Source: an uncultured Alphaproteobacteria bacterium (GTDB lineage: Bacteria > Pseudomonadota > Alphaproteobacteria > Rs-D84). From it: 64,000 nt of DNA. Positions 18,254 to 37,238 of the stretch are shown piece by piece. Every line of letters begins with the position of its first letter. The stretch's first letter is position 1. Made by a program: the position numbers and the translations under genes. The stretch is from positions 8,254 to 72,253 of the forward strand of contig CALXMC010000004.1 in NCBI GenBank assembly GCA_944389385.1, given 5' to 3'. The notes under the pieces were generated by a model that saw nothing but the letters and a program-made list of their open reading frames with translations, was not told the DNA's origin and ran no database searches.

Positions 18254-18298
18254 TGGCTCGGGCAACTGGACTCGAACCAGTGACATACGGATTAACAG
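18254..18298 (-). other. 45-bp fragment identical to the 3' part of tRNA-Asn, starting in the anticodon loop (att site direct repeat)
   Basis: TGGCTCGGGCAACTGGACTCGAACCAGTGACATACGGATTAACAG is identical to 36220-36264. Similarity extends ~8 bp further (GAAAT-CTT). Confidence 0.85.
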
Positions 18299-19266: not shown

Positions 19267-20475
19267 ATGGCAGAACAATGGAAATGCTATACAAAGCCGT
19301 TTCGGGACACTTGGATACATCTGTTGCATTCAGATGTTAACCTGCAGGTCAGCGACGGCACCATCCCAGGATTATTCCTGCGATATTCTGCGGCAACACG
19401 CAATATTCGGTTTTTCCTGGGGTGTAAAATAGATAACAAGAAATGCAATATTTTTATAGGTCGCTACAGAGATTATTCTATCAAAGATATTCGTGACATG
19501 GCGTGGAATATGCGGCATCAAATTGCCCAAGGCGAAGACCCACGCAGAAAAAGAATAGAAGAACAACTGAAAGAAAAAGAAACGCTGGGCGAACAGGTAA
19601 AAGTACTGTTCCCACAATATATGGACAAATATTCCAAAATATACAAGAAGCCACGAACCCAGGATTCTAATTGGGGGCAATATAGATTATATTTAGCGCC
19701 TATGTTTGATAAGCTGTACATACGCCAAATAGAAGAAAAGCATGTAATGGACGCCTATGCCAAGTGGGTAAAGAAAACCTCATTCTCAACCGCGAACAAA
19801 GCGCTGTCTCTGTTCTCTAATTTCTGGGATTGGTGCGAAATGTATAAATACGTAGACCGCAATACAAACCCATGCAAGTATGTCCGCAAAGGTTCAAACA
19901 AAGTTTATAAGCCACAAATACTGGACCAAGACGGTTATCGTGCATTATCGCATGCGCTGGATGTTGGGCCCCAGGTATCTAAAATGCACCCACGGTTATT
20001 CAATGCGTTGCGGGTGCTGATGCTGACTGGGGGTCGTGCGTCTGAAATAACCGGGCTAGAGGTAGAAGAACTTGCGCTTATGCACAAGGTAATACACCTG
20101 AAAGACAGCAAGACCGGCGCCCGGGATGTAAAACTGTCTGACGCAGTTATACCATACTTGCAGGCTGCGCTGGATGAAGCAACCGCACTGGGCAGCAAAT
20201 ATGTATTCCCAGGTGTTGGGAACGAGCACAGACCAATAAACAACATCCGCAAGCCATTTGAATGGGCACTGTCATATGCCAAGCTGCCACATATGCGAAT
20301 ACACGACCTGCGACATTCGTTTATCAGTATGGGTGCAAATATCGGTGAAAATATAGCTGCCATGAAAGAAGCAGCCGGCCATTCCCGTATAACCACCACC
20401 GAAGGATATACCCACATCATGGACAGCAGCACCTATCGTGCCATCAATAACGTTGCAAATGCAATATGTGCCTAA
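19267..20475 (+). CDS. int: Tyrosine site-specific integrase
   Basis: C-terminal catalytic region with R (GGRASE), HDLRHSF, HSRITTTEGYTH (H-x-x-R...Y). 402 aa; true start may be downstream. Confidence 0.8.
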   Translation: MAEQWKCYTKPFRDTWIHLLHSDVNLQVSDGTIPGLFLRYSAATRNIRFFLGCKIDNKKCNIFIGRYRDYSIKDIRDMAWNMRHQIAQGEDPRRKRIEEQLKEKETLGEQVKVLFPQYMDKYSKIYKKPRTQDSNWGQYRLYLAPMFDKLYIRQIEEKHVMDAYAKWVKKTSFSTANKALSLFSNFWDWCEMYKYVDRNTNPCKYVRKGSNKVYKPQILDQDGYRALSHALDVGPQVSKMHPRLFNALRVLMLTGGRASEITGLEVEELALMHKVIHLKDSKTGARDVKLSDAVIPYLQAALDEATALGSKYVFPGVGNEHRPINNIRKPFEWALSYAKLPHMRIHDLRHSFISMGANIGENIAAMKEAAGHSRITTTEGYTHIMDSSTYRAINNVANAICA

Positions 20476-22277: not shown

Positions 22278-22664
22278 GTGAAAGTAACAGCTGCGATTTT
22301 TAGAAATGAGGACCGGGTTCTGCTTATGCGACGGGCGGCTGATCAGCCGTTGGCGGGCGAATGGGAATACCCCGGTGGCAAGTTTGAAGATGGCGAAGAC
22401 GGCCCAACATGCCTGCGCCGGGAACTGGCCGAAGAGTTGGGAATCGATGCGCAAATTGGCGACCTGATTACCATCGCAAAACATACAACAGATTCTGGCA
22501 AGGTTATCGAACTGCACACATACGAAATCAAATCCTTCACCGGCGAAATTCAACTGCGCGTCCACGATGATATGCATTGGGTGCCAGTCCAGGACTTGCC
22601 ATTCCACCCACAACTCCCCGCCGACCAAATCGTATCTAAAACATTACAAGCCAAAGGAAAGTAA
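22278..22664 (+). CDS. Nudix hydrolase (MutT-like)
   Basis: Nudix box GGKFEDGEDGPTCLRRELAEELGI (Gx5Ex7REUxEExGU). 128 aa. Stop 1 nt before next start. Confidence 0.8.
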   Translation: MKVTAAIFRNEDRVLLMRRAADQPLAGEWEYPGGKFEDGEDGPTCLRRELAEELGIDAQIGDLITIAKHTTDSGKVIELHTYEIKSFTGEIQLRVHDDMHWVPVQDLPFHPQLPADQIVSKTLQAKGK

Positions 22665-22665
22665 A

Positions 22666-24642
22666 ATGAGCGACGCTTTCTACAAAAACAGTATTCATAA
22701 CTTTTTGCGCCAAAGCGATGATGAAATCTTTGGTATTATCGCCGCAGGTGACAGATACGACACGGTTGCCGCACAAAAAGACGCCTGGATGGAACAAATT
22801 CGCGTGTTGAAATATGCGCTGGCATACGCGCCATCTGGCAGCATCCTGTTTGAATACACACTGCCACGTGTGGGCGGTCGCATAGATAACATCTTGCTGA
22901 TAAACAATACTGTTTTTGTTTTAGAGTTCAAGGTCGGCGCAGAAACATATGCCAGTGATGCAATCCGCCAGGTTCGCACATACGCATTTGATTTGCAAAA
23001 CTATCATGAAGAAAGTCGTCAGTGTAAAATCGTTCCTATCTTGGTGGCAACAGGTGTACCGGATGACTACCGCAAACACGATATGCCAGAAGATGTAATC
23101 CTGACTGACGGTGATGAATTGCGTAATATATTCATTCGCAACACAGATACTTCGTGCACAACAATCAATATGGACAAATGGGCAACTTCCAGATATGTCC
23201 CAACCCCAACGATTATCGAAGCCGCGGAAATTTTATACAGCAATCACTCTGTTGCGGATATTGCGCAAAATACGGCGGCTGAAAACCTGACCAAAACATC
23301 AGACGCAGTTCAGCGTATAATTGAACATTCAAAGCAGAATAAACAAAAATCTATTTGCTTTATCACCGGTGTGCCTGGCGCGGGTAAAACCTTGGCGGGT
23401 CTGAATATCGCAATTGAAAATCAGAAAACAACAGGGCAAAGTTATTCGTGTTTCTTAACGGGTAATCAGCCACTGGTATCCGTTTTACGCGAAGCGTTGG
23501 CCGCAGACGATCATCGGCAAAACGGTACGCAAATCACAGAAGCCCGCAATAAAGTAAAATCCTTTATCCAGATAATCCACCATTTTCGTGACGCGTCATT
23601 GGAAAATGTGGATGTGCCACCAATCGACAATGTTGTTATATTTGATGAGGCGCAACGCGCATGGGTTCAATCAATGCTATCTGGTTTTATGCAAGAGAAG
23701 AAGGTTGCTGTTCTTAATCGACTGACCAACGAACAGCGGGCACATTTCTTGTCTATGAGTGAACCAGAAATGTTAATTGACTATATGAACCGACACCAAG
23801 ATTGGGCCGTAATCGTCTGTCTTGTTGGCGGTGGTCAGGACATTAACACTGGTGAAGCTGGTATCCAGGAATGGTTCGCGTCATTAAAACGTTCTTTCCC
23901 AGATTGGAATGTTTACGTGTCTGGCGACATAACATCCAATGAATACCTGGGCGATCAATCGTTTACAGAACTGACCGATGGATTGAAATGCGAAACGATT
24001 AAAGAACTGCACCTGTCCGTATCATTGCGTGCACACAGAACATCCGATGTTGCGGGTTTTGTGGATTCTTTGCTGGATAACGATGCCGCAGCCGCCGCAG
24101 AAAAATATAAGCACCTGTCCGGAATTTACCCGATTTATATGACCCGCGACTTGGCGCGCGCCAAACAATGGGTGCGCGAACAGACCGCCGGCAAGGCATT
24201 GCGTCATGGTCTGATTGCCAGTTCAAATGGTCGCAGATTGCGTGCAGATGGTATTTGGATAGAAAGTAAGTGCAAGCCGGAAAAGTGGTTCCTGGGTGAA
24301 CGTGATGATATCAAGTCTTCATACTTTATGGAAGAAGCGGCCAGTGAATTTGATATCCAGGGCCTGGAAATAGATTATGCGGTTGTTGGCTGGGATGCAG
24401 ACTATAGATATGTAAACGGTGAATTCGAATGTTTTAAACCAAGTGGTTCGCGCTGGTTAACAATAAATCAAGAATACAAGAAACGTTATCTGAAAAACGC
24501 ATATCGCGTTTTACTGACACGTGCCCGTGAAGGTTTTGTAATATTCGTCCCACGCGGCGACGCGTCCGACACCACCCGTCAACCAGAATTCTACGACGCC
24601 CTATGGCAATACCTAACCGATATTGGGGTGGAGGAGTTATAA
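22666..24642 (+). CDS. DUF2075-family protein: N-terminal nuclease-like region plus P-loop ATPase/helicase-like domain
   Basis: Start set at ATG 22666 (RBS GGAAAG). Walker A FITGVPGAGKTLAG mid-protein. Walker B-like VVIFDEAQRAW. Overall order matches DUF2075 as I recall it. Confidence 0.6.
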   Translation: MSDAFYKNSIHNFLRQSDDEIFGIIAAGDRYDTVAAQKDAWMEQIRVLKYALAYAPSGSILFEYTLPRVGGRIDNILLINNTVFVLEFKVGAETYASDAIRQVRTYAFDLQNYHEESRQCKIVPILVATGVPDDYRKHDMPEDVILTDGDELRNIFIRNTDTSCTTINMDKWATSRYVPTPTIIEAAEILYSNHSVADIAQNTAAENLTKTSDAVQRIIEHSKQNKQKSICFITGVPGAGKTLAGLNIAIENQKTTGQSYSCFLTGNQPLVSVLREALAADDHRQNGTQITEARNKVKSFIQIIHHFRDASLENVDVPPIDNVVIFDEAQRAWVQSMLSGFMQEKKVAVLNRLTNEQRAHFLSMSEPEMLIDYMNRHQDWAVIVCLVGGGQDINTGEAGIQEWFASLKRSFPDWNVYVSGDITSNEYLGDQSFTELTDGLKCETIKELHLSVSLRAHRTSDVAGFVDSLLDNDAAAAAEKYKHLSGIYPIYMTRDLARAKQWVREQTAGKALRHGLIASSNGRRLRADGIWIESKCKPEKWFLGERDDIKSSYFMEEAASEFDIQGLEIDYAVVGWDADYRYVNGEFECFKPSGSRWLTINQEYKKRYLKNAYRVLLTRAREGFVIFVPRGDASDTTRQPEFYDALWQYLTDIGVEEL

Positions 24643-24646
24643 CCAT

Positions 24647-25480
24647 ATGATTAAAGAATATCCATTGCCACATCCGTTAAAGAATGATGACGTAGACACC
24701 TTAATGAAAAAAATAAGGATGATGGTTCGCACCATGGAATCATTTCACCCTCAGGCTACAAAAGACAAGGCTCTTATGGGGCTACATAGTTTGGTGGGGG
24801 CTATTATTTCTCTGTCGGCAGAGGTTTATGATGCTTTGCAAAATAACAGAGTTTTTGTGGCCAGTTCCATTACGTGCCAAATTTTAGAAGCTGAAATACA
24901 ACTGCTATGGTTAAACAAGCATTTTAATACCAGGGGTAAAGATTTTATAGATTTTGGATATGTTGAACAAATAGAAATGTTATGTGTACACCCAGATCGT
25001 AAAGATAGGGTTTTAGAATTACTGAAGCAAAATAATTGCGACAGATTCTTACGTAAAGGCCTTAAGAATCCAAATAGACTAGATCGTAACAGTTACAACA
25101 AAAAGTGGTATGGTGATACGATACAAAACATATCAGAAGATTATTTCAATCCTGTTTTGGAATCGATTCAAGACACACCAGAGTTGGTTGCATATTATGA
25201 AAACAAAGATATAAACTACGAAAATTATCAACTGTTTTGTGGCTACAAACACTTTTCACCATATTTAGTAAGAAGATTTTTCGCAACAAGTCAATCTTTT
25301 CAAGAAGATGAAAGCAAATATGCTAGGGTGGCGGTTTTGCAAACTGTTTTGAATTCATTACTAAATGTCTGTTTCGTTCTTGAACAACATGGCGATCCAA
25401 TATTGCATATCAAGCCACTCGCAACAGAAGGGTTGGCGCCCGCATCCGCCAAACAAAAAATACAGGAAGAACGCAATTAA
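24647..25480 (+). CDS. Hypothetical protein (operon member)
   Basis: 277-aa ORF starting 4 nt after the DUF2075 stop with RBS GGAGGAG. No recognised motif. Confidence 0.45.
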   Translation: MIKEYPLPHPLKNDDVDTLMKKIRMMVRTMESFHPQATKDKALMGLHSLVGAIISLSAEVYDALQNNRVFVASSITCQILEAEIQLLWLNKHFNTRGKDFIDFGYVEQIEMLCVHPDRKDRVLELLKQNNCDRFLRKGLKNPNRLDRNSYNKKWYGDTIQNISEDYFNPVLESIQDTPELVAYYENKDINYENYQLFCGYKHFSPYLVRRFFATSQSFQEDESKYARVAVLQTVLNSLLNVCFVLEQHGDPILHIKPLATEGLAPASAKQKIQEERN

Positions 25481-25548
25481 CATATTGTTCCCTTGACTTT
25501 ATGGTTTGTTTTGGTCTAACTTTCTTACTGAGGAAAGGTTCAAGAACA

Positions 25549-26529
25549 ATGGAATATGAAATTGATATCAGAGAAAATATGATATTGAGAAAGTGGCCAG
25601 TTTTACTGGATATTCTGTTGTATGATCATACGACAAAAAAAAATATTTTCTGGGCTACAGATTTATATGAAAACCATTATGGTAATAGATACTCATTTAG
25701 GTCTCAAATAAAACCGGAACTTATTACTGGTATAAACGATGGCATAATCAAACCTCGTGTAGCGAAGACTAAGAAAGCACAGCAAGATCGCGTTAAGGAT
25801 AAAGCAGAGGTTTTTACGCCCTCCTGGATATGTAACAAACAAAATAATTTGATAGATAATGATTGGTTTGGTTATGAAGGGGTTTTCAACAAAGAAAAAG
25901 ATGACAACACCTGGATCCCCACTAAGAAGCCTGTTGTGTTTCCAGAGGGGAAAAACTGGGTTGATTATGTTCGTGAATTGCGGTTAGAGGTTGCGTGTGG
26001 TGAGGCACCGTATTTAGTAAGTCGATACGATATTACAACTGGAAAAAAGATAAAAATACCTAATAGAATTGGTTTGCTGGATCGGAAACTCCGCATTATA
26101 AATGAAAATGCAGCCAGTGATAGCGAATGGTTTGCGATGGCAAAATGGGCATTCAAAAGCACATATGGTTATGAATGGCAGGGGGATAATTTATTGCTGG
26201 CTCGAGAAAACTTGTTGTTCACGTTTATTGAGTACTATCAGGATAGATTTGACGAAGAACCGGGATTAGAAATTTTAATGGAGATCGCAGAAATTATTTC
26301 TTGGAATATATGGCAAATGGATGGAATTCGTGGTGTTTTACCGTGTTCTTGCTGTAATTCAAAACATATAGACTTATTCGGTGAAAAAACTAGGGGGGGG
26401 TGTCTTGGTTGTAAAACCGGCGATATTCATAGTCATAACGGTATATATTGCAAGATTCGTGATTGGAATAGCAAAACAAAACGTCCAAAAACATTAACTT
26501 TTGTATCATTGTTAAAGGATATAAAATGA
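25549..26529 (+). CDS. Methyltransferase-like protein with degenerate gamma-class motifs X and I, no NPPY, and a C-terminal Cys cluster
   Basis: EVFTPSWICNKQNNLI resembles motif X of N6-adenine MTases and is near-identical in pattern to EVPTPINVCDNIINLI in the next gene. LEVACGEAPYLV resembles motif I (DPACGxGxFL). No NPPY. C-terminal CSCCN...CLGCK...C cluster. Confidence 0.45.
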   Translation: MEYEIDIRENMILRKWPVLLDILLYDHTTKKNIFWATDLYENHYGNRYSFRSQIKPELITGINDGIIKPRVAKTKKAQQDRVKDKAEVFTPSWICNKQNNLIDNDWFGYEGVFNKEKDDNTWIPTKKPVVFPEGKNWVDYVRELRLEVACGEAPYLVSRYDITTGKKIKIPNRIGLLDRKLRIINENAASDSEWFAMAKWAFKSTYGYEWQGDNLLLARENLLFTFIEYYQDRFDEEPGLEILMEIAEIISWNIWQMDGIRGVLPCSCCNSKHIDLFGEKTRGGCLGCKTGDIHSHNGIYCKIRDWNSKTKRPKTLTFVSLLKDIK

Positions 26530-29500
26530 AAGATTTAAATCTTGATGAAGTTATAGTAGGTAGAGTAGAACCACATATATACGCCTTTACAACGAATACC
26601 ATACCGAACTATTTAAAGGTTGGAGATACATATCGTACTGTCAAAAGTAGATTGGAGGAATGGAAAAAATATTTTCCGAACCTAAAAGCAGAGTTTGATG
26701 GAAGTGCAAAAATATCTGATGGAGTTTTTGTTAGAGATTATTCTGTGCATCAATATTTGGAAGGCGGTATACATAGAGATAGGTTAACGCCAGAGATTTT
26801 AAAGCAAATTTCGCCAGCAGCTTATTTTTCTAAAGAATTTTTTAAAAATGCCACTGCACAAGATGTTAGTGATGCGTTGACTGATATTCGGGAATCGTTT
26901 GCTAATAACGATAACAGGTATAGTTTTTATAATTTAGATCGTATGCCTGTAGTTCACCAGTATGCCTCAACAGGATTCTGGAAGCCTCGTCCAAATCAAC
27001 AAGATACGATAGATAAAATTAAGGAGGCTGTTGAGAAAGGTAGAACCAATTTGCTAATGTATGCAGTAATGCGCTTTGGAAAATCTTTTACAGCCCTATG
27101 TTGCGCAAAGGAAATAAACGCTGAAATCGTATTGGTTGTTTCTGCAAAAGCTGATGTTAAGGAAGAATGGCGTAAAAATGTTCAAAGTGCAGATAATTTC
27201 AGAGACGATTATATTTTTGCAGATGCAAAACAATTGCGAGATGAGGAAGGTTTAATCAAAAACACGCTGGATAATAAAAAAAAGGTGGTTTTGTTTTTGA
27301 CTTTGCAAGATTTGCAAGGAACAGATATTAAAGAAAAACACAAAGAAGTTTTTGATAACAAAATAGATCTGTTAATTGTTGACGAAACTCATTACGGGGC
27401 TAGGGCCGAAAAATATGGTGCTGTTTTGCGTCAAACAAAGGATATAAAGCAAGACTATTCAACAGAAGGTTTTGTAGATATAGAAGAGGCTGATAAACAG
27501 ATAAAGACCCTTAAGGCCAAGATAACGCTACACCTATCAGGAACACCGTATCGCATATTGATGGGCAGCGAATTTACCAAAGATGACATAATTGCTTTTT
27601 ATCAGTTTACAGACATTGTAAAGGCGCAGGAGAATTGGGATAAAGAAAACCTATTAAAGGACGAAGCAGAACCAGAATGGGACAACCCTTATTTTGGTTT
27701 TCCGCAAATGATACGATTTGCGTTTCACCCAAGTACAGTCGCTAAAGCAAAGCTAGACGAGTTAAGGAAGAATGGTGTTAGTTATGCATTTTCTGAGTTG
27801 TTTAAACCAAAATCGATCTATCGTGCAGGTGACGAAAGTCATAAAATGTTTGTCCATGAGTCCGAGATTTTAGATTTGTTCACAGTGATAGATGGCAGTA
27901 AGAACGATAAAAATGTTCTTGGTTTTCTTAATCATGACAAAATCCAATCAGGAAATATGTGTCGCCACATAGTTTGTGTGTTGCCATATTGTGCTTCTTG
28001 TGATGCGCTGGAAAAACTTATACAAGACAATGCAGATAAATTTAAAAACTTGCGGGACTACGAAGTAATAAATATCTCAGGTGTTGATGCTGCTAGAACC
28101 TATAGAGATGTTAATGCTGTGAAGAGAAAGATTAAGGAATGCGAAGCCGATAACAAGAAAACTTTAACTTTGACAGTGAATCGTATGCTTACGGGTAGCA
28201 CGGTTGAAGAATGGGATACAATGATTTTTTTGAAGGATACCGCATCCCCACAAGATTATGACCAGGCTGTTTTTCGTCTGCAAAATCAATATGTTAGAAA
28301 ATATGTTGATCCTAAAACAGGGCAGGAAATCAAATATAACATGAAACCGCAAACATTATTGGTCGATTTCGATCCAAATCGTATGTTTATGATGCAGGAA
28401 TCTAAATCACAGATATATAATGTAAATACGGAAGTAAACGGAAATTCTAAATTACAAGACAGAATCCAAGAAGAATTGCGTATTTCGCCGATTATAACCA
28501 TAAATCAAGACAAAATAAGTCAGGTTGATGCGTCGGATATTATTGATGCAGTTAGCGAATATTCGAGTAAACGCGGTGTCTGGGACGAATCAAAAAGCAT
28601 TCCTGTAGATTTTGAATTATTAAAAGATCAACAGATATTTGATGTAATAAATAGTCAGGGGGAAATTGGATCTAACCAGGGATTGAAGGTCGAAGGAAAT
28701 GTCGGTGATGATGTTGATATTGATGTGCCACCGGTAGAACTTCCGGAACCTCCTGTTGAGCCAAAAGATCCGGCGCCAGTGGTTGCTGTTGAAAAAGACG
28801 ATATGAAAAGTTTGGAAAATAAATTCAAAACTTATTATTCCAGAATATTATTTTTCGCCTTTTTAACAAACAATAAAGTTACATCATTGGATGATGTATT
28901 AAATTGCATCACAAAAGAAGATAATGTGCGTATAGCAAAGAATTTAGGTTTAAAATATCAGATATTGGTTAGCATAAGAAATAAAATCAACAGTTATATT
29001 TTGCAACAGCTGGATTACAAAATATATGATATCAGTAAATTGGCACACGATACAGAGGTTGAGCCTATAAATCGTGCGGAAACGGCATTGATAAAGTTTG
29101 GGCGTTTTTCAGAATCCGAAGTCCCAACGCCAATCAATGTTTGTGACAATATAATAAATTTAATACCAGATGACGCATTTCTGTCACTCAAGAAACAGAA
29201 TAATGCAATGTTGGATATAGCAAGCAAGGCCGGTGAATTTGCGATCGCTATTTGTAAAAGATGTGAAAAGATAGGCATCGATATAGAATCAATAAAAGAT
29301 TCCGTGCTGGCTATACCCACATCATCGGTTGCGTATGAATTTACGCGCAAAGTTTATGAATTTCTTGGTTTGAATATCAATGCGATAGCAGCAGAATTTA
29401 ATAGTTATGATTTGTTGGATGTTAAGATGTTGGACAGACGTGGCAGACCAACAAAGAACATAGATTATGCACGTGTTGCTGCTATATTAAAACAAACTAA

Positions 29501-30593
29501 GCCACTGGATAAAATTAAATTAAATGATAATATTGAAGAAGCAGGAGAAAATAAAATGCAGTTTCAAGCAGTTGTTGGAAATCCGCCATACCAAGAAGCG
29601 CGCCAGAATACTAGTGATAATCCTATATATCATTTATTTATGAATGTAGCATTTCTGCTGAGTAATAAAGCATCATTTATTACGCCTGCTAGGTTTTTAT
29701 TTAATGCCGGTAAAACCCCAAAAGAATGGAACAGGAAGATGCTTGACGATGAGCATGTTAAGGTTTCATCTTATGAAAGAGAATCTAAAAAGTATTTCCC
29801 TCATACCAGTATAAATGGCGGAATTGCAATAACTTATAGAGATACTTCAAAAAAATATGGTGCAATTAAATTTTTTCGACCATATAAAGAAATGGGGAGT
29901 GTTGCAGATAAAATATTGAATTACAAAAACTTTGAAAGCATCAAAGATATGGTTTATCTCCAAAATAAATTTAATTTAGAGGCGCTATATAAAGATTATT
30001 CTAAAGCTAAAACAAAAATTAGCTCTGCTGGTAGCGAAAAGCGAATAGTGTCATCTGCTTTTGAGAACCTTACTGAAGTTTTTTCAGATGTGATGCACAC
30101 AAAAAGTAGTGTTCCTATTTGTGGATTATTCAAGAGAAGAAGGATAGTCAAATACATTGAGGAAAAATATTTAGAACGTGGATCAAATATAGATCATTAT
30201 AAAGTTTTACTTTCTTCCGCTGATGGGGCGAGTGGTACCATAGGCAACCCTGTACCAGCAAGGGTGATTGGAGAGCCAGTTGTGTTGGATGCTGGTGTTG
30301 GATACACTCAGACATTTATTTCAATTGGAGCTTTTAAACGTAAAAAAGAAGCGGATAATTTACAGAAATATTTAAAAACTAGATTTGTTCGTTTCATGGT
30401 GGGGACTCTAAAGGCAACAAATGGGCTTAAGATAGAAGTTTGGTCAAATGTGCCAAAACAGGATTTTTCTGACGCGTCTGACATAGATTGGTCAAAATCC
30501 ATTGCTGAAATAGATAAGCAGTTATACAAGAAGTATGGGCTGGATAAGAAAGAAATTGATTTCATTGAATCTATGATCAAACCAATGGAGTAA
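26526..30593 (+). CDS. Fused GIY-YIG nuclease / SF2 helicase-ATPase / gamma-class N6-adenine methyltransferase / C-terminal putative TRD (Type ISP/IIG-like RM enzyme)
   Basis: N-terminus HIYAF-(9)-YLKVGDTYRTVKSRLEEW fits GIY-(9-11)-YIG...R...E. Helicase motifs I RFGKSFTAL, II LLIVDETHYGA, III LSGTPYRI, VI QAVFRLQN. MTase motifs X EVPTPINVCDNIINLI, I LDIASKAGEFA, IV VVGNPPYQ. ~450 aa after NPPY for target recognition. ATGA overlap with upstream gene. Confidence 0.7.
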   Translation: MKDLNLDEVIVGRVEPHIYAFTTNTIPNYLKVGDTYRTVKSRLEEWKKYFPNLKAEFDGSAKISDGVFVRDYSVHQYLEGGIHRDRLTPEILKQISPAAYFSKEFFKNATAQDVSDALTDIRESFANNDNRYSFYNLDRMPVVHQYASTGFWKPRPNQQDTIDKIKEAVEKGRTNLLMYAVMRFGKSFTALCCAKEINAEIVLVVSAKADVKEEWRKNVQSADNFRDDYIFADAKQLRDEEGLIKNTLDNKKKVVLFLTLQDLQGTDIKEKHKEVFDNKIDLLIVDETHYGARAEKYGAVLRQTKDIKQDYSTEGFVDIEEADKQIKTLKAKITLHLSGTPYRILMGSEFTKDDIIAFYQFTDIVKAQENWDKENLLKDEAEPEWDNPYFGFPQMIRFAFHPSTVAKAKLDELRKNGVSYAFSELFKPKSIYRAGDESHKMFVHESEILDLFTVIDGSKNDKNVLGFLNHDKIQSGNMCRHIVCVLPYCASCDALEKLIQDNADKFKNLRDYEVINISGVDAARTYRDVNAVKRKIKECEADNKKTLTLTVNRMLTGSTVEEWDTMIFLKDTASPQDYDQAVFRLQNQYVRKYVDPKTGQEIKYNMKPQTLLVDFDPNRMFMMQESKSQIYNVNTEVNGNSKLQDRIQEELRISPIITINQDKISQVDASDIIDAVSEYSSKRGVWDESKSIPVDFELLKDQQIFDVINSQGEIGSNQGLKVEGNVGDDVDIDVPPVELPEPPVEPKDPAPVVAVEKDDMKSLENKFKTYYSRILFFAFLTNNKVTSLDDVLNCITKEDNVRIAKNLGLKYQILVSIRNKINSYILQQLDYKIYDISKLAHDTEVEPINRAETALIKFGRFSESEVPTPINVCDNIINLIPDDAFLSLKKQNNAMLDIASKAGEFAIAICKRCEKIGIDIESIKDSVLAIPTSSVAYEFTRKVYEFLGLNINAIAAEFNSYDLLDVKMLDRRGRPTKNIDYARVAAILKQTKPLDKIKLNDNIEEAGENKMQFQAVVGNPPYQEARQNTSDNPIYHLFMNVAFLLSNKASFITPARFLFNAGKTPKEWNRKMLDDEHVKVSSYERESKKYFPHTSINGGIAITYRDTSKKYGAIKFFRPYKEMGSVADKILNYKNFESIKDMVYLQNKFNLEALYKDYSKAKTKISSAGSEKRIVSSAFENLTEVFSDVMHTKSSVPICGLFKRRRIVKYIEEKYLERGSNIDHYKVLLSSADGASGTIGNPVPARVIGEPVVLDAGVGYTQTFISIGAFKRKKEADNLQKYLKTRFVRFMVGTLKATNGLKIEVWSNVPKQDFSDASDIDWSKSIAEIDKQLYKKYGLDKKEIDFIESMIKPME

Positions 30594-31728: not shown

Positions 31729-32247
31729 TTATATATTAAAAGTAGTAAAAAAATTTTGTAGTTCTTTATCTGAAACAGTGTGTGACAATATATCACTTAC
31801 ATTTTTCAAATTTGTTTTTTCTTTTGGATTTAATCTTTGGTGTCTTAAATTTTCAAAACATTTGCGTATAAGATGCTGTTTGGTGTCCGGTAAATAGGCG
31901 ATGCATGCTAAATGATTATTTTTTCTTTTGTTCATTAAATCAGATTCATTTTCAGTGCAGATTTTTCTGATGTCAAAATGAGAACATCCGGATAAATATT
32001 GTGTAGGTCTGGATGTTAATGAATCTTTTATCAAACATAACCATTCTTTTTCTGTTACAGAAAACGTTAAGCTATGATTTGTATAGTCTTTTGATGTAGA
32101 AACAAAAAAATACAGTACTTCCCGAATAAGAGGCATCCGGTTTATAAATAATTTATATTTACGTTTGCAAACATTTGTGGTTTCTTCTACAGATTGTTCA
32201 TCAACGTAACACCAAAACGGTTGAAAATATTCCATTTTAAGCAGCAT
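31729..32247 (-). CDS. Putative toxin partnered with a Panacea-domain antitoxin (no recognisable family)
   Basis: 172-aa ORF. 11-nt overlap with upstream Panacea gene in operon arrangement. No known toxin motif seen. Confidence 0.4.
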   Translation of the reverse strand: MLLKMEYFQPFWCYVDEQSVEETTNVCKRKYKLFINRMPLIREVLYFFVSTSKDYTNHSLTFSVTEKEWLCLIKDSLTSRPTQYLSGCSHFDIRKICTENESDLMNKRKNNHLACIAYLPDTKQHLIRKCFENLRHQRLNPKEKTNLKNVSDILSHTVSDKELQNFFTTFNI

Positions 32248-32725
32248 ACATATTTAAAACTTCACCCATATGCTCTGTGCCGCCAAGAGTCGCACCAATT
32301 AAAACCATAGGTTTTGTGTTATAGGCTATTTCTGTTAAAGTTTTAGCTCCGTATCCCTGCACATGTTCCAGCATAGTAGAAACAATGTTCAGTTCATCTG
32401 GTGACAAAGAATCTGTTTCTACTGATGTAGGATCGGTAAGATTGTAAACTACGTGCTCGTCGCTTCCAAAGAAACAGGATTCTGCAGATATCGTTCCTTC
32501 TTCGCGCATGTTTTCAAGGTTTTTGTAAATAGTACTATCAAAAGGACCAAAATTCCAACGGATATATTTAAATTCGGATATAGGTTTCCCAATATTGCGA
32601 ATTGCGGCCAAGTCAATCAAGTATGATATTTTTAGCAAACTAGTAACTCCGCGTGGGCCATCACGCAAAATGAGCGCCAAAAGCTGTTTCGTTTTCTGAC
32701 ACATAAAATTTCTCTTTGAGTTCAA
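32237..32725 (-). CDS. Panacea-domain (DUF4065, GepA/SocA-like) putative antitoxin
   Basis: KQLLALILRDGPRGVTSLLKISYLIDLAA...ISEFKYIRWNFGPFDSTIYKNLENM fits the DUF4065 pattern (LQKLLYLAD...W.YGPV...Y). Confidence 0.5.
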   Translation of the reverse strand: MNSKRNFMCQKTKQLLALILRDGPRGVTSLLKISYLIDLAAIRNIGKPISEFKYIRWNFGPFDSTIYKNLENMREEGTISAESCFFGSDEHVVYNLTDPTSVETDSLSPDELNIVSTMLEHVQGYGAKTLTEIAYNTKPMVLIGATLGGTEHMGEVLNMYAA

Positions 32726-33216: not shown

Positions 33217-34017
33217 ATGGCAGATTATAAGGAATATCTGGATAAAATAAGAAATTCGCAGTTGTTATATTTTGATTCATTTCCATTGGATATGACGTCT
33301 TGTGAATATAATGTGCATTTGTTGTTGAATAAAATGGCGGAAGCAAGAAAGTCATACCTTTTGCTAATGGATAATGAACGATTTACGGATGCTATGTTGG
33401 TGGCAGGACATTTGCTAGAGAATGCAGCGGTGATCAATTATCTTTCTGCTAGCTTGCAAGAAGCTAATACAAAACAAATAAGCAAATATCTGGCACGAGA
33501 AACGGTACAAACTCTATGTGATTTATTCAAATTTGTAGGCGATGATAATGTGGATGCGGAAACTCAAGAAAATATAGATTTTATAATGGATGATTTTAAG
33601 AATAGATGCGACATAGTTGTATCGAAAAAAGCGGAACAAAGTCACGAAGAATTGGTCCAGACTATATTGATGGCTATGACAAATTCGGAAAAATTAAGAA
33701 TTATAAAAAATAATTACGAATTTCCGGTGGTTGAAGATTATTTGAGGCCGTTTAGGAAAGATTTATCAAATTTTTATGGTTTTTCCGGTATTGATAAAAA
33801 GCTTGTGTTGTTTTATTCGTCATATTGCAAAATAAAACACTGCGGGGCGGCTATGTATGTGCCAGTTCTATGCAAAGATATGGTTGTTATGAATAAAAAT
33901 CAGTACAGAGGCCTTAGCCCTATAGTTGTCTGGATGTGTTTGGAATACACAGAAAAGAATATAAAAAATATATTGTCAAAAATAAAACCAGAATTAGGAT
34001 TAACAGCCAAAAACTAG
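33217..34017 (+). CDS. Hypothetical protein (266 aa), convergent with reverse transcriptase
   Basis: Clean ORF. No recognised motif. Confidence 0.4.
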   Translation: MADYKEYLDKIRNSQLLYFDSFPLDMTSCEYNVHLLLNKMAEARKSYLLLMDNERFTDAMLVAGHLLENAAVINYLSASLQEANTKQISKYLARETVQTLCDLFKFVGDDNVDAETQENIDFIMDDFKNRCDIVVSKKAEQSHEELVQTILMAMTNSEKLRIIKNNYEFPVVEDYLRPFRKDLSNFYGFSGIDKKLVLFYSSYCKIKHCGAAMYVPVLCKDMVVMNKNQYRGLSPIVVWMCLEYTEKNIKNILSKIKPELGLTAKN

Positions 34018-34034: not shown

Positions 34035-35576
34035 TTAATTTATTGGTTTATTGATAAGTGTTGTTATAAATTTGTTAAGTTCCACATCTTCTGAGTCTAT
34101 AATCTTTTTAACGCGTTCAAAATGTTTTCGCATTTGTTTTTTCAATGTGATATCGCCCATATCGTCAAAGGCTCTATTGACATAGGCCCAGAAAGTTCTT
34201 TTGCCTAGGTGTGTGTAATTCCTATATAAACTTCTCCTGTATAGTTTGGTTTTGATTTGTTTGGGGGCTTGGCCAGCTTCGACCAATCGTTTAATTTTGT
34301 TTTGTGTTGCTAAGCGCATGGATCTAATACCACGTTTGGATTTCCGTAAATATCTTGCCATACTAGAACCACGAATTTTTATGTCTTTGCCATCAAACGT
34401 GAATCCTAAATATTGTAAAGGGTCTTCGATTATTCTGTCAGAAGTAAAATCATAACATTTGCTTTTAGATTTTTTATTATCTTCGATTTGATGTATTGAT
34501 AAATATTTTCCTTGTTCTTTGATGGTTGTCATAATATGTCGGCATATATCTTCTTTTGAATCTTTATCGCATATAATCAAAATATCATCAGAATAACGTC
34601 TGTATACGGCACCATGGTTATTACAAAATTCATTCATGGATTTATCAAATGGCAGCATATAAATATTCGCTAATAACGCCGAAAGGGGAGAACCTTGCGG
34701 AATACCATATGGTGCATCTGTACCTTGAACACCAGGGTTAACATCAAATGTATGATTGTTGATTTTTTCTTTATTACAGATTTTTTGGTGTTGTTTATAC
34801 CATTGTCTAAATTTATGGAAATCGGACATATTGTTAAATAATTTTTGCGGTAATTTATATCCCCTTCGCAACGGGCAGTTTAAACAGGTTTTTGCAGTTG
34901 GAATACAATGCATACATTGCAAATACATTTTTATGATGTCAATATCGATGAAACTGTATTTAGTCAGTGTTTTATAAATATTGAAATGATCTGGTGGTAG
35001 GGTGTCGCAAGCGTCATCTCTACTAAGGAGCGCAGCCCATTGTTTTTTTAGGTTTTTATGGTCAATATAGTCATAAAAACTTTTTATATCGAATGCGAGA
35101 GCTAAGCAGTTGTTTTTTCTGCTTTTTATTATATCAAATACTTCTCGTGCAAAAGTAATATTATTTGCGACTTTTTGCATGTGTTTGGACTTACGGTATG
35201 CTAATACCACATCACCGAGCCCCAATTTTGAGAGCTTTTTTTCATATAAATCATACAATATAGTTGCATAATATGAAAAAATCATTGAATCAAAATGGGC
35301 GGCATATCTGATTGGACGTTTTTTTACAATAGATTGTTGTTGGTCTCTTGGCGTGGTTTTATCTATTTTAGATACGCGCCGTTCTTCAATGTCATACCCA
35401 ATAAAAGGCAGAAAGGGATGTTGGGCTATTTTATTGGCATTGGTTATATACTCGATAATGTTCTTAGCTGCGCTAGATATTGTGCCGTTTGGTAATCTGT
35501 ACGCGTTGATTGGAGCATCAATATGTTTATATTTTTTTCTATTATTATAAAAAAAAGATTCCCAATCAAATTCCAT
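34035..35576 (-). CDS. Stand-alone reverse transcriptase (defence-associated/Abi-like or retron-like; unclassified)
   Basis: RT motifs: motif 1 KKRPIRYAAHFDSMI, motif 2 LALAFDIKSFYDYIDH, motif 4 GIPQGSPLSALLANIYM, motif 5 YRRYSDDILI (YxDD), motif 6/thumb LQYLGFTF. ~90-aa insertion with CxxC...CxxC between motifs 2 and 4. No maturase or endonuclease domain. Confidence 0.75.
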   Translation of the reverse strand: MEFDWESFFYNNRKKYKHIDAPINAYRLPNGTISSAAKNIIEYITNANKIAQHPFLPFIGYDIEERRVSKIDKTTPRDQQQSIVKKRPIRYAAHFDSMIFSYYATILYDLYEKKLSKLGLGDVVLAYRKSKHMQKVANNITFAREVFDIIKSRKNNCLALAFDIKSFYDYIDHKNLKKQWAALLSRDDACDTLPPDHFNIYKTLTKYSFIDIDIIKMYLQCMHCIPTAKTCLNCPLRRGYKLPQKLFNNMSDFHKFRQWYKQHQKICNKEKINNHTFDVNPGVQGTDAPYGIPQGSPLSALLANIYMLPFDKSMNEFCNNHGAVYRRYSDDILIICDKDSKEDICRHIMTTIKEQGKYLSIHQIEDNKKSKSKCYDFTSDRIIEDPLQYLGFTFDGKDIKIRGSSMARYLRKSKRGIRSMRLATQNKIKRLVEAGQAPKQIKTKLYRRSLYRNYTHLGKRTFWAYVNRAFDDMGDITLKKQMRKHFERVKKIIDSEDVELNKFITTLINKPIN

Positions 35577-36219
35577 TGTTATAACCCAACAGCAAAATAC
35601 CCGGGAGACGCCAGGTTTGCGCTAACCATTTGAGACGTCTCTCGTAAACCTTGATTCTACTAAGCTGTGCTCAGTTTGGCTGGTCATCCTTGCTGTTCAC
35701 GCAAAAGTACACGCATAAATTATCAAAGGTTCTATATTTGTCGTAATGAACGTTATTATGAACCAAGGGAGGTCTTGATGATATTCGCACAAATCTTGTT
35801 TAAATGCTTCAATATTCAAGTTTGCCAAGATTCACTGGTCATAGTATTCTTTGCGTTGCAATGGATACTTGACTTCGTTTATTCGATCCCCCTGAACCTA
35901 AAGAACAGGGCAAATTAAATATAATTTTCTTTGGCAGGATTTCAAGTGGTTGAAATGATTTTTTTACGGTATTTGGTTTAGTTTTTTGTAACATAAATAT
36001 AAAACTTGCATTATGTTCAAAATATGTAGACAATCTTACTGATTGAAAAAGCATAAGTTATTCATAAGACGACGGATAGGTTACGGATCCTGTGTAGCTA
36101 TTGTGTAGCCAGAGGGGTGTTTTATGGCGTATTTTGGTGTATCGTAGTATGCGTAAATACAGAAGTGTTAATTTAAGAAAAATGCCGCAAACCTGCGGGG
36201 TTTACGGCGGAAATTCTTG

Positions 36220-36295
36220 GCTCGGGCAACTGGACTCGAACCAGTGACATACGGATTAACAGTCCGTTGTTCTACCGACTGAACTATGCCCGAAC
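36220..36295 (-). tRNA. tRNA-Asn (anticodon GTT), CCA encoded
   Basis: 76 nt: TCGGGCA TA GTTC AGTCGGTA GAAC A ACGGA CTGTTAA TCCGT ATGTC ACTGG TTCGAGT CCAGT TGCCCGA G CCA. Cloverleaf folds with GTT anticodon. Confidence 0.85.
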
Positions 36296-36413
36296 AGCCC
36301 GCATATCATATAATCTTTTTTATCCGATTTCAAGTACTTTTTTTATCCGTTGCGATTTTACTTTTTTAGTGCTATATTTTTACCCGTCCAATAAAAAACA
36401 TAGAGGAAGCAAA

Positions 36414-37238
36414 ATGTTATTAAAAGGAAAAAAGATTTTAATTACTGGTGTCGCAAATGATTGGTCTATGGCGTGGGCTATTGCCCGCCGCGCGCATGAC
36501 GAAGGCGCAGAAATCGCCATGCCGTATGCTATGCCAAATTTGGAAAAGCGCGTACGTCCGTTGGCTGAATCCATTGGCGCGAAATTTGTCCAGGAATGCA
36601 ACGTTCAAAACGATGAACAAATGGACGATTTGTTTAACAAAATTGAACAAGAATGGGGCAGGTTGGACGGCATGCTGCACGCGATTGCGTTTTCTGATAA
36701 AAACGAATTGACCGGGCGTTATGCAGACACCACACGTGCGAATTTCAAAAATACCATGGACGTGTCAGTATATTCTTTGGTTGATTTGACGCGTCGTGCA
36801 TCCAAACTGATGACAGACGGCGGCAGTATCGTTACATTAACATACTATGGCGGTGAAAAATCAGTACCAAATTATAATGTAATGGGTGTTGCAAAATCCG
36901 CCCTGGACAGCAGTGTTCGTTATCTGGCGTCTGACCTGGGGCGTGATAGAATTCGCATCAACGCAATCAGTGCGGGTCCGATTATGACTCTGGCGTCGTC
37001 TGGTGTTGGTGGAATGAAATCCATGCTGCGCCTGAATGCGGAACAAACTCCGCTGCGTCGCAATATGACGTTGGACGATGTGTCTGGTGCTGCGATTTAT
37101 TTGTTCAGCGATTTATCCAGTGCGGTTACCGGCGAAGTGCATCATGTTGACTGTGGATATTCTACAACTGGCATGATTCCAAACGATTTGAAAGATGTTT
37201 TATTGCGCGGCTTGGACGAGCAAAACGAACAAAAATAA
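36414..37238 (+). CDS. fabI: Enoyl-[acyl-carrier-protein] reductase (NADH), FabI
   Basis: MLLKGKKILITGVANDWSMAWAIA N-terminus (Rossmann). Catalytic Y...K context (YNVMGVAKSALDSSVRYLA). RBS GAGGAAG before ATG 36414. Upstream part of the tracked ORF overlaps the tRNA and is excluded. Confidence 0.8.
   Translation: MLLKGKKILITGVANDWSMAWAIARRAHDEGAEIAMPYAMPNLEKRVRPLAESIGAKFVQECNVQNDEQMDDLFNKIEQEWGRLDGMLHAIAFSDKNELTGRYADTTRANFKNTMDVSVYSLVDLTRRASKLMTDGGSIVTLTYYGGEKSVPNYNVMGVAKSALDSSVRYLASDLGRDRIRINAISAGPIMTLASSGVGGMKSMLRLNAEQTPLRRNMTLDDVSGAAIYLFSDLSSAVTGEVHHVDCGYSTTGMIPNDLKDVLLRGLDEQNEQK

Follow-up and report, generated by a model that had tools for sequence, protein, structure and literature searches.

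What is made by a reverse transcriptase (RT) gene that adjoins a long stretch of DNA with no recognisable gene in it? We addressed this question computationally for one locus in a 64,000-nt stretch of DNA (hereafter the window) from an uncultured alphaproteobacterium of the GTDB lineage Rs-D84 (GenBank assembly GCA_944389385.1, contig CALXMC010000004.1, positions 8,254 to 72,253 of the forward strand). A preliminary description made from the letters alone had noted an orphan RT with a Cys-rich insertion, next to a structured noncoding region at the edge of a genomic island. The host is a Candidatus Enterousia gut alphaproteobacterium, and a Candidatus Enterousia metagenome-assembled genome carries an RT 98% identical to that of the window. 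By analogy with characterised systems, and with a probability of roughly 85%, we take the locus to be a complete DRT2 (UG2) defence-associated reverse transcriptase system against phages, made up of one RT and a cis-encoded noncoding RNA (ncRNA) in which a Neo effector is hidden. DRT2 is a known type of system; the locus represents a divergent, uncharacterised long sub-family of it.

The reverse transcriptase

The RT gene and its Cys-bearing segment lie as follows.

34035..35576, minus strand: Drt2-family RT gene, an open reading frame (ORF) of 513 aa with the catalytic YSDD at residues 328-331.
34707..35057, minus strand: expanded segment between RT motifs 3 and 4 (residues 174-290), delimited by alignment and holding the Cys cluster.
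34875-34916, minus strand: codons of the Cys cluster C221-x2-C224-x6-C231-x2-C234, a putative zinc knuckle.

The protein does have the length, the core RT motifs and the YRRYSDD box that had been ascribed to it, the box lying at residues 325-331 and being invariant across relatives. It is a clear Drt2/UG2 defence RT, not an orphan of unknown class as first supposed, and it is not retron-like. Two PADLOC Drt2 models match it at E=6e-126 (PDLC03757) and E=7e-103 (PDLC02173), the next-best family being UG17 at E=2e-28, and the NCBIfam Drt2 equivalog NF041746 matches at E=6.5e-116 (387.9 bits). KpnDRT2, the DRT2/UG2 RT of Klebsiella pneumoniae (PDB 9c0i; Wilkinson et al. 2024; Tang et al. 2024), is the top PDB sequence match (E=7e-64, about 31-35% identity). 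An AlphaFold (AF2) model of the RT with a predicted local distance difference test score (pLDDT) of 87.2 retrieved the same structure with Foldseek (9c0i_A, E=2.7e-32, TM-score 0.82), the next chain standing at 1.7e-9. The fold of the RT is thus like that of KpnDRT2, a right hand bearing a fingers insertion and a long helical thumb, and Pfam gives it no second enzymatic domain.

The Cys-rich insertion had been given as about 90 aa between motifs 2 and 4. Its CxxC...CxxC pattern is present, its net size relative to the family is only about 30-38 aa, and its place is more exactly between motif 3 (residues 161-173) and motif 4 (residues 291-299). The 120 best homologs of the RT include the canonical Drt2 group of ~425 aa and a group of long proteins, which measure 500-645 aa and share 31-99% identity with the query. 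The motif 3-4 segment measures 117 aa in the window RT, and its median is 113 aa in the long relatives vs 83 aa in canonical Drt2. A CxxC occurs within it in 50 of the 53 long forms vs 2 of the 56 short forms, and none of 27 long-clade sequences departs from C231 or C234; because of these counts and this invariance, the cluster is, as judged from the alignments, real and a marker of a long DRT2 sub-clade. It may bind zinc or another metal. The low model confidence across the segment (pLDDT 57-60) is what would be expected of an unmodelled metal site. In KpnDRT2 the ncRNA's 5' handle docks onto a fingers insertion (PMC12039810), and by analogy the Cys expansion could enlarge this handle-docking element.

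The noncoding RNA and the predicted neo gene

DRT2 is defined by an ncRNA template whose antisense concatemer rebuilds a promoter and an endless ORF (PMC12039810, PMC11100668), and the template is the least conserved part of the ncRNA (PMC12039810). We aligned the region upstream of the RT gene among relatives at 56-99% RT identity (nine loci including the window). The promoter is conserved; after it come a strongly conserved 5' block that contains a hairpin, a centre that is hypervariable, and a 3' block, again conserved, that extends to the RT start. This conserved/variable/conserved pattern, with the covariation given below, bears out the earlier suggestion that the region encodes a template or scaffold RNA, and identifies it as one of DRT type. 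The parts of the ncRNA are these.

35918..35945, minus strand: ncRNA promoter, probably also that of the RT gene, TTGAAA-16 nt-TATATT, with a predicted start at ~35912.
35577..35912, minus strand: predicted DRT2 ncRNA of about 336 nt (5' handle, template, 3' scaffold), supported by alignments and covariation.
35888..35912, minus strand: 5' handle hairpin GCCCUG...CAGGG, 30 nt before the template; helix 1 of the consensus fold.
35577..35723, minus strand: 3' scaffold, helices 4-7, with 14 pairs changed on both sides.
35675-35659, minus strand: short scaffold hairpin.
35650-35596, minus strand: long compound scaffold hairpin with the GGGAGACG/CGTCTCTC repeat.

On the minus strand no other site resembles a promoter so closely as this one (10 of 12 positions), and its position is kept in the relatives. 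In the consensus fold, which comprises 43 pairs, 92.5% of cells are paired; 20 of the 43 are changed on both sides, vs 8.1±2.0 in shuffles (0 of 500 reaching the observed count) and at most 7 in slid registers. Compensatory variants of the 5' handle read CCCUAU/AUAGGG in L168 and CACU/AGUG in L003, L089 and L123. The inverted repeat quoted in the preliminary description, CGAGAGACG...CGUCUCCCG, exists and forms the long 3' hairpin at 35644-35602, in which 6 of 11 pairs have changed on both sides. A covariance model of the scaffold matches the window at 126.5 bits, its matches being confined to the 56-99% identity group. Neither inspection by eye nor the consensus fold revealed a conserved stem that closes the template at its base, as SL2 of Tang et al. 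does. Of the 640-bp gene-free structured region proposed initially, the lack of a conserved ORF, from the RT start as far as 36217, and the existence of an ncRNA hold, and the extent shrinks to about 336 nt (35912-35577); the remainder of the gap holds the ncRNA promoter, conserved island-end sequence and a tRNA terminator. A minus-strand ORF of 71 aa in the gap (35839-36054) was rejected as a gene, being unconserved and having an 8-nt indel in relatives.

Separately, a terminator-like hairpin, ACCUGG...CCGGGU followed by AUUUUG, lies at 35616-35599 on the minus strand and overlaps the 3' strands of scaffold helices. The only variation seen in it is one-sided (U-G to C-G). It could be the ncRNA's 3' end, an attenuator ahead of the RT gene, or a pseudoknot's ACCY/GGGU arm.

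Within the hypervariable centre we place the template and, on its complement, the signals of a neo gene.

35724..35882, minus strand: template of 159 nt, whose plus-strand reverse complement is one neo unit encoding QRFYICRNERYYEPREVLMIFAQILFKCFNIQVCQDSLVIVFFALQWILDFVY.
35879..35882, minus strand: first copy of the border microhomology (AUAA), the first bases of the template.
35720..35723, minus strand: second copy of the border microhomology (AUAA), directly 3' of the template, the predicted landing site of the template jump and a functional analogue of ACA-2 (PMC11100668).
35869..35874, plus strand: neo -35 element TTGACT, at the unit end.
35733..35738, plus strand: neo -10 element TATATT, at the unit start, 17 nt after the -35 element only when two units are joined.
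35767-35772, plus strand: neo Shine-Dalgarno sequence GGGAGG.
35778-35780, plus strand: in-frame neo ATG.

When antisense units are joined at the unit-to-unit junction TTGACTTCGTTTAT/CAAAGGTTCTATATT, they read TTGACT TCGTTTAT/CAAAGGTTC TATATT (slash at the junction), that is, -35 and -10 elements with a 17-nt spacer. Past the junction -10 follow AAGGGAGG, the ATG and a stop-free frame of 53 codons encoding a hydrophobic repeat.

Listing all in-frame stop-free concatemers in the gap gave thousands on both strands and did not discriminate; comparative and signal-based tests were used in its place. A stop-free circular frame, in a given frame, occurs in 2.1% of shuffles for the window and in 1.5-4.7% per locus (composition-matched). 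We used an unbiased finder without prior anchors that required a -10 element upstream of a -35 element, a circular spacer of 16-18 nt, a length divisible by three, 3 nt or more of microhomology, a frame free of stops, and a Shine-Dalgarno sequence with an ATG. It recovered the 159-nt unit in the window, and complete candidates appeared in none of 200 shuffles. Other stop-free units (111, 123, 126 and 141 nt in the window; 129, 144, 150 and 180 nt in relatives) were rejected, either for want of a 17-nt junction promoter or because relatives do not share them.

The same architecture recurs well beyond the window. All nine aligned loci have units of 153-162 nt, a multiple of three in each case, and share both the 17-nt spacer and TTGACT without variation. 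Their microhomology changes in step at both borders: AUAA(A), (CA)GAUAA, GAACAGAU, AUUAA and AUC. Relatives at 82-84% RT identity have an almost unrelated template and a 162-nt unit, one codon longer than that of the window, and they carry TTGACT-17-TATAAT, AAGGAG and an in-frame ATG. Long-clade loci at only 40-48% RT identity also have complete units, of 147-171 nt, two of them (L007, L008) recovered by the finder as well, and the 17-nt spacer is kept in these distant loci too. Units in the loci of 17 relatives span 147-171 nt, every one divisible by three. Canonical Drt2 control loci treated identically gave units of 99-132 nt (mode 120) with an ACA microhomology, which validates the method because these sizes and this motif match the literature. 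The Neo peptides of long-clade loci L004-L006, L088, L090-L092 and L171 have in common an N-terminal stretch rich in Y and N and a C-terminal ILDF/LDI stretch. The former derives from the TATAAT -10 element and the latter from the TTGAC of the -35 element, so these shared residues reflect promoter constraint, not protein function.

The ncRNA contains one further recurrent element. A direct repeat of 7-10 nt, (U)GAC[C/A]AG[C/U], has one copy in the template (35842-35835) and one in the scaffold (35687-35680), both on the minus strand. The motif (U)GAC[C/A]AG is the longest template-scaffold direct repeat in nine ncRNAs (the window, L081, L084, L002, L085, L087, L170, L168 and L169); its C/A state always agrees within a locus and does not track the RT phylogeny. 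The copies lie 155 nt apart, a distance not divisible by three, and no sequence complementary to the motif was found elsewhere in the ncRNA. A similarly placed repeat occurs in some canonical DRT2 loci (L017, L038, L050) and not in others. The repeat could be a new control element acting in priming, second-strand synthesis or termination.

By analogy with characterised DRT2, the ncRNA would be transcribed from TTGAAA-N16-TATATT with a start near 35912 and would be bound by the RT through its 5' hairpin and 3' scaffold. The RT would copy the 159-nt template (35882-35724), and rolling-circle reverse transcription would yield tandem 159-nt repeats. Once the repeat DNA is double-stranded, presumably on phage infection, each junction would present a sigma-70 promoter, TTGACT-17 nt-TATATT, giving an mRNA with GGAGG-ATG and the stop-less 53-codon repeat. 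The resulting hydrophobic Neo polypeptide would be toxic and arrest the infected cell (abortive infection). The predicted effector is thus the Neo protein encoded on the antisense strand of the ncRNA template, with no need of a protein partner. Established here are the family of the RT, the architecture and covariation of the ncRNA, and the conservation of junction promoter, reading frame, unit length and microhomology; the biochemical steps, the trigger by phage, Neo toxicity and zinc binding by the Cys cluster are inferred.

Counter-evidence, alternatives and neighbouring genes

Five of the seven DRT2 features tested were found, the exceptions being the literal ACA motif, which is absent, its role being filled by the co-varying microhomology, and scaffold homology, for which a short and a long compound hairpin were observed. 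Several results weigh against the assignment and are collected here. The NCBIfam Drt2 score of 387.9 falls 2 bits below the equivalog cut-off of 390. The window has AUAA at its template borders, not the published ACA-1/ACA-2 pair, and its ATG lies 39 nt after the -10 element vs 24 nt in the canonical loci scanned. Third-position excess in substitutions between related templates is weak and indicates little purifying selection on Neo residues, in agreement with published remarks on Neo; this bias being too weak to use, we set aside the codon-position (synonymous-change) test as coding evidence, and the case for coding rests on the kept frame and signals. A three-repeat Neo query against 5.8 billion proteins from public assemblies gave no junction-spanning match, a negative that is in itself uninformative. 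Structure prediction, proposed earlier as a check on the upstream region, succeeded by covariation and failed by stability, as the single-sequence fold is not stabler than shuffles (z = -0.85); covariation, not stability, is therefore the evidence for ncRNA structure. Finally, neither canonical ncRNAs nor those of the 40-48% long-clade loci are detected by the scaffold covariance model, and a scan of 30-41 kb against Rfam (E<=1) matched tRNAs alone, so that homology to the KpnDRT2 scaffold is not demonstrated at the RNA level.

The gene that converges on the RT gene had been put forward as its effector partner.

33217-34017, plus strand: ORF of 266 aa, convergent to the RT gene, with an all-alpha model.

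Six loci (the window, L001 and L081-L084 among them) have this gene at an identical 17-nt convergent spacing, and their outer flanks vary (integrase, resolvase, DUF488, methyltransferases); because of the fixed spacing and the differing flanks, the two genes appear to move as a cassette among the closest relatives (at least 82% identity). Beyond these, the gene is absent at the 56-63% RT-identity loci, and at 66% (L002) the locus stops with the RT gene. The family is small (27 clusters). A homolog 87% identical adjoins an AAA_15/AAA_21 ATPase with no RT on at least 23 contigs, and one at 48% adjoins PLD, methylase and Mrr genes. The protein, for which the all-alpha model is confident, has no family match and no PDB fold match; its invariant residues are H65, E68, D113, E173, D174, R177, R180, K207 and H208. 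From these gene contexts we conclude that the 266-aa gene is an independent defence-island gene and not, as proposed, the DRT2 effector, with a lineage-specific accessory role possible. As a separate observation, the family recurs in defence islands, once directly upstream of an AAA_15/AAA_21 ATPase and once after a PLD-domain gene (L172, 4001-6661; L173, 3014-4783), and the protein may belong to defence systems that are as yet uncharacterised.

The rival view of a two-gene system, with the 266-aa protein serving the RT as effector or as an accessory that it requires, draws on the constant 17-nt stop-to-stop spacing across differing flanks and on the protein sometimes being more conserved than the RT (96% vs 84% identity in L084). 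The gene's absence at the 56-63% loci, where the neighbours are unrelated, the homologs that occur without an RT, the want of a family or fold match, and the fact that canonical DRT2 needs the RT and ncRNA alone (PMC12039810) make such a system distinctly improbable. We consider it unlikely, too, that a DRT2-like RT and ncRNA produce a repetitive cDNA that acts untranslated, as a decoy, sponge or signalling DNA, with the open frame incidental, after the manner of the tandem-repeat DNA of DRT10/UG17 or the homopolymers of DRT9. UG17/DRT10 is indeed the second-best PADLOC family, the third-codon-position bias in the template is weak, and Tang et al. found Neo hard to annotate in divergent DRT2 clades and held other mechanisms possible there (PMC11100668). 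On the other hand, the Drt2 match lies about 100 orders of magnitude above that to UG17, no SLATT or other DRT10 partner was found nearby with Pfam or PADLOC, and units divisible by three, the stop-free frame, the Shine-Dalgarno sequence with its ATG, and the 17-nt junction promoter are all kept despite extreme template divergence.

The preliminary description had left the choice between a retron and a DRT-type defence RT, of which the second part stands. A retron making branched multicopy single-stranded DNA (msDNA) from an msr/msd RNA, with a guarded toxin, is hardly credible: matches to retron RT models are confined to the core (PADLOC, about E=1e-13), the best of them, NF038233, reaches 58.6 bits where its cut-off is 235, the Drt2 and KpnDRT2 fold matches dominate, and the ncRNA is built like that of DRT2, junction promoter and ORF included. 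A degenerate group II intron or diversity-generating retroelement would be equally far-fetched. Drt2 RTs are distant kin of group II intron RTs, and the group II model TIGR04416 matches the RT core at 63.6 bits, against a cut-off of 300. RVT_1 is the sole Pfam domain, with no maturase or endonuclease domain, and no intron RNA domains or other Rfam family were found in 30-41 kb at E<=1, so the initial judgement that this is not a group II intron is confirmed. A search of 30.0-37.5 kb for repeats like the template and variable repeats (TR/VR) of diversity-generating retroelements returned only AT-rich repeats of at most 44 nt and ~70% identity. Neither intron domains nor TR/VR repeats, which the preliminary description had named as grounds for abandoning its reading, thus occur in the regions scanned. 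A DRT2 system with a hidden neo gene accordingly remains our preferred account of the locus.

The DRT2 module sits in a larger island bounded by a tRNA gene, whose main landmarks are as follows.

36218-36293, minus strand: tRNA-Asn, with its own terminator at 36208-36184.
19267-20475, plus strand: integrase, at the island end distal to the tRNA.
26526-30593: type IIG restriction-modification enzyme.

A 22-nt sequence from the 3' end of tRNA-Asn stands in perfect direct repeat at 18257-18278 and 36221-36242, and GC content falls across ~25-36 kb. Because of the copy at 18257-18278, the DRT2 module can be placed at the tRNA-proximal edge of an integrated island of ~18 kb, in keeping with the island edge noted at the outset. 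The attachment (att) core of the island is missing from every relative's locus. This defence island further holds a Fic protein, an SLFN-type helicase, a DUF5677 protein and a SocA/Panacea antitoxin-type gene.

Four observations on the island and its border stand apart from the DRT2 module. At 22567-26529 on the plus strand, overlapping or abutting genes encode an SLFN group 3 helicase (691 aa), a DUF5677 protein (285 aa) and a 342-aa ORF without a match; this trio lies directly upstream of the type IIG gene and may be another defence operon. At 31729-32725 on the minus strand, a SocA/Panacea protein (162 aa, 32237-32725) overlaps by 11 nt a downstream 172-aa ORF without a family match; the two resemble a toxin-antitoxin pair of PanA type whose toxin is unclassified. 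At 36090-36115 on the minus strand, in the conserved sequence that separates the ncRNA promoter from the tRNA terminator, GCUACACA occurs twice, 11 nt apart (GGCTACACAATAGCTACACAGGATCC). The pair is conserved in L001 and L081-L083, and immediately past it L081 and L083 have an integrase and a gene of excisionase-like HTH_17 type; its copies may be recombinase arm or accessory binding sites. On the plus strand, a FabI-like enoyl-ACP reductase ORF (36267-37238) has a listed TTG start that overlaps tRNA-Asn; its real start is probably an internal ATG (MLLKGKK...) near 36414, because the Pfam match begins at residue 55.

The long sub-family and comparison with known systems

Long-form relatives occur in gut-associated Alphaproteobacteria, Gastranaerophilales, Bacilli and Desulfovibrionaceae. 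We tentatively propose, as a reading we ourselves regard as doubtful, a long-form Drt2 sub-family (513-610 aa) in which a zinc-knuckle-like CxxC module would enlarge the fingers insertion, the template would be about one-third longer, any short co-varying microhomology, in place of ACA, would serve as the jump site and (U)GAC[C/A]AG would be a possible control element. If this were true, the DRT2 jump would be programmed by border homology alone. Within the incomplete coverage of our literature search, no paper described this clade or tied DRT2 to a zinc module.

DRT2 is among the most unusual routes to a gene, one that exists only after rolling-circle reverse transcription of an ncRNA. Here one divergent clade keeps, computationally, the full Neo logic of junction promoter, frame and unit divisible by three, and parts thought fixed change within it: ACA gives way to a variable, co-varying microhomology, the unit to one of 147-171 nt, and the RT to one with a Cys-rich module. 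These regularities supply rules for spotting a hidden neo where the NCBIfam equivalog or ACA-based pipelines would miss it, and the clade offers a natural set of variants for asking what programmes the template jump.

Like a retron, the locus has a defence RT adjoining a structured ncRNA template; retrons differ in their RT clade, their single-copy branched msDNA and their separate effector, none of which was seen here. DRT10/UG17 combines telomerase-like synthesis of tandem-repeat DNA with a SLATT effector. The locus resembles it in having a class 2 UG RT, a cis ncRNA template and predicted tandem-repeat DNA, and differs in its far weaker RT match (E=2e-28), in the absence of a SLATT partner and in a long repeat (159 nt) with gene-expression signals.

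The closest known system is KpnDRT2. The RT is longer here (513 aa vs 425 aa, at ~31-35% identity), has a Cys-bearing expansion of ~30-38 aa between motifs 3 and 4 that KpnDRT2 lacks, and carries YSDD in its catalytic box in place of YCDD. The template, about one-third longer, is 159 nt (147-171 nt in the clade) vs 111-132 nt, the microhomology is AUAA and variable in the clade where KpnDRT2 has a conserved ACA, the neo 5' untranslated region is longer, with the ATG 39 nt after the -10 element vs 13 nt (PMC12039810), and the scaffold has no detectable sequence similarity to canonical ncRNAs. In common with KpnDRT2, the locus has a single RT-domain protein preceded by an ncRNA on the same strand, which comprises a 5' handle hairpin of ~30 nt analogous to that of KpnDRT2 (PMC12039810), a central template and a 3' scaffold of ~140 nt. 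Both have direct microhomology at the two template borders and a template divisible by three whose antisense strand carries neo, a stop-less hydrophobic repeat with a Shine-Dalgarno sequence and an ATG, and in both the -10 element lies near the unit start and the -35 element near its end, so that the 17-bp spacer arises only upon concatenation.

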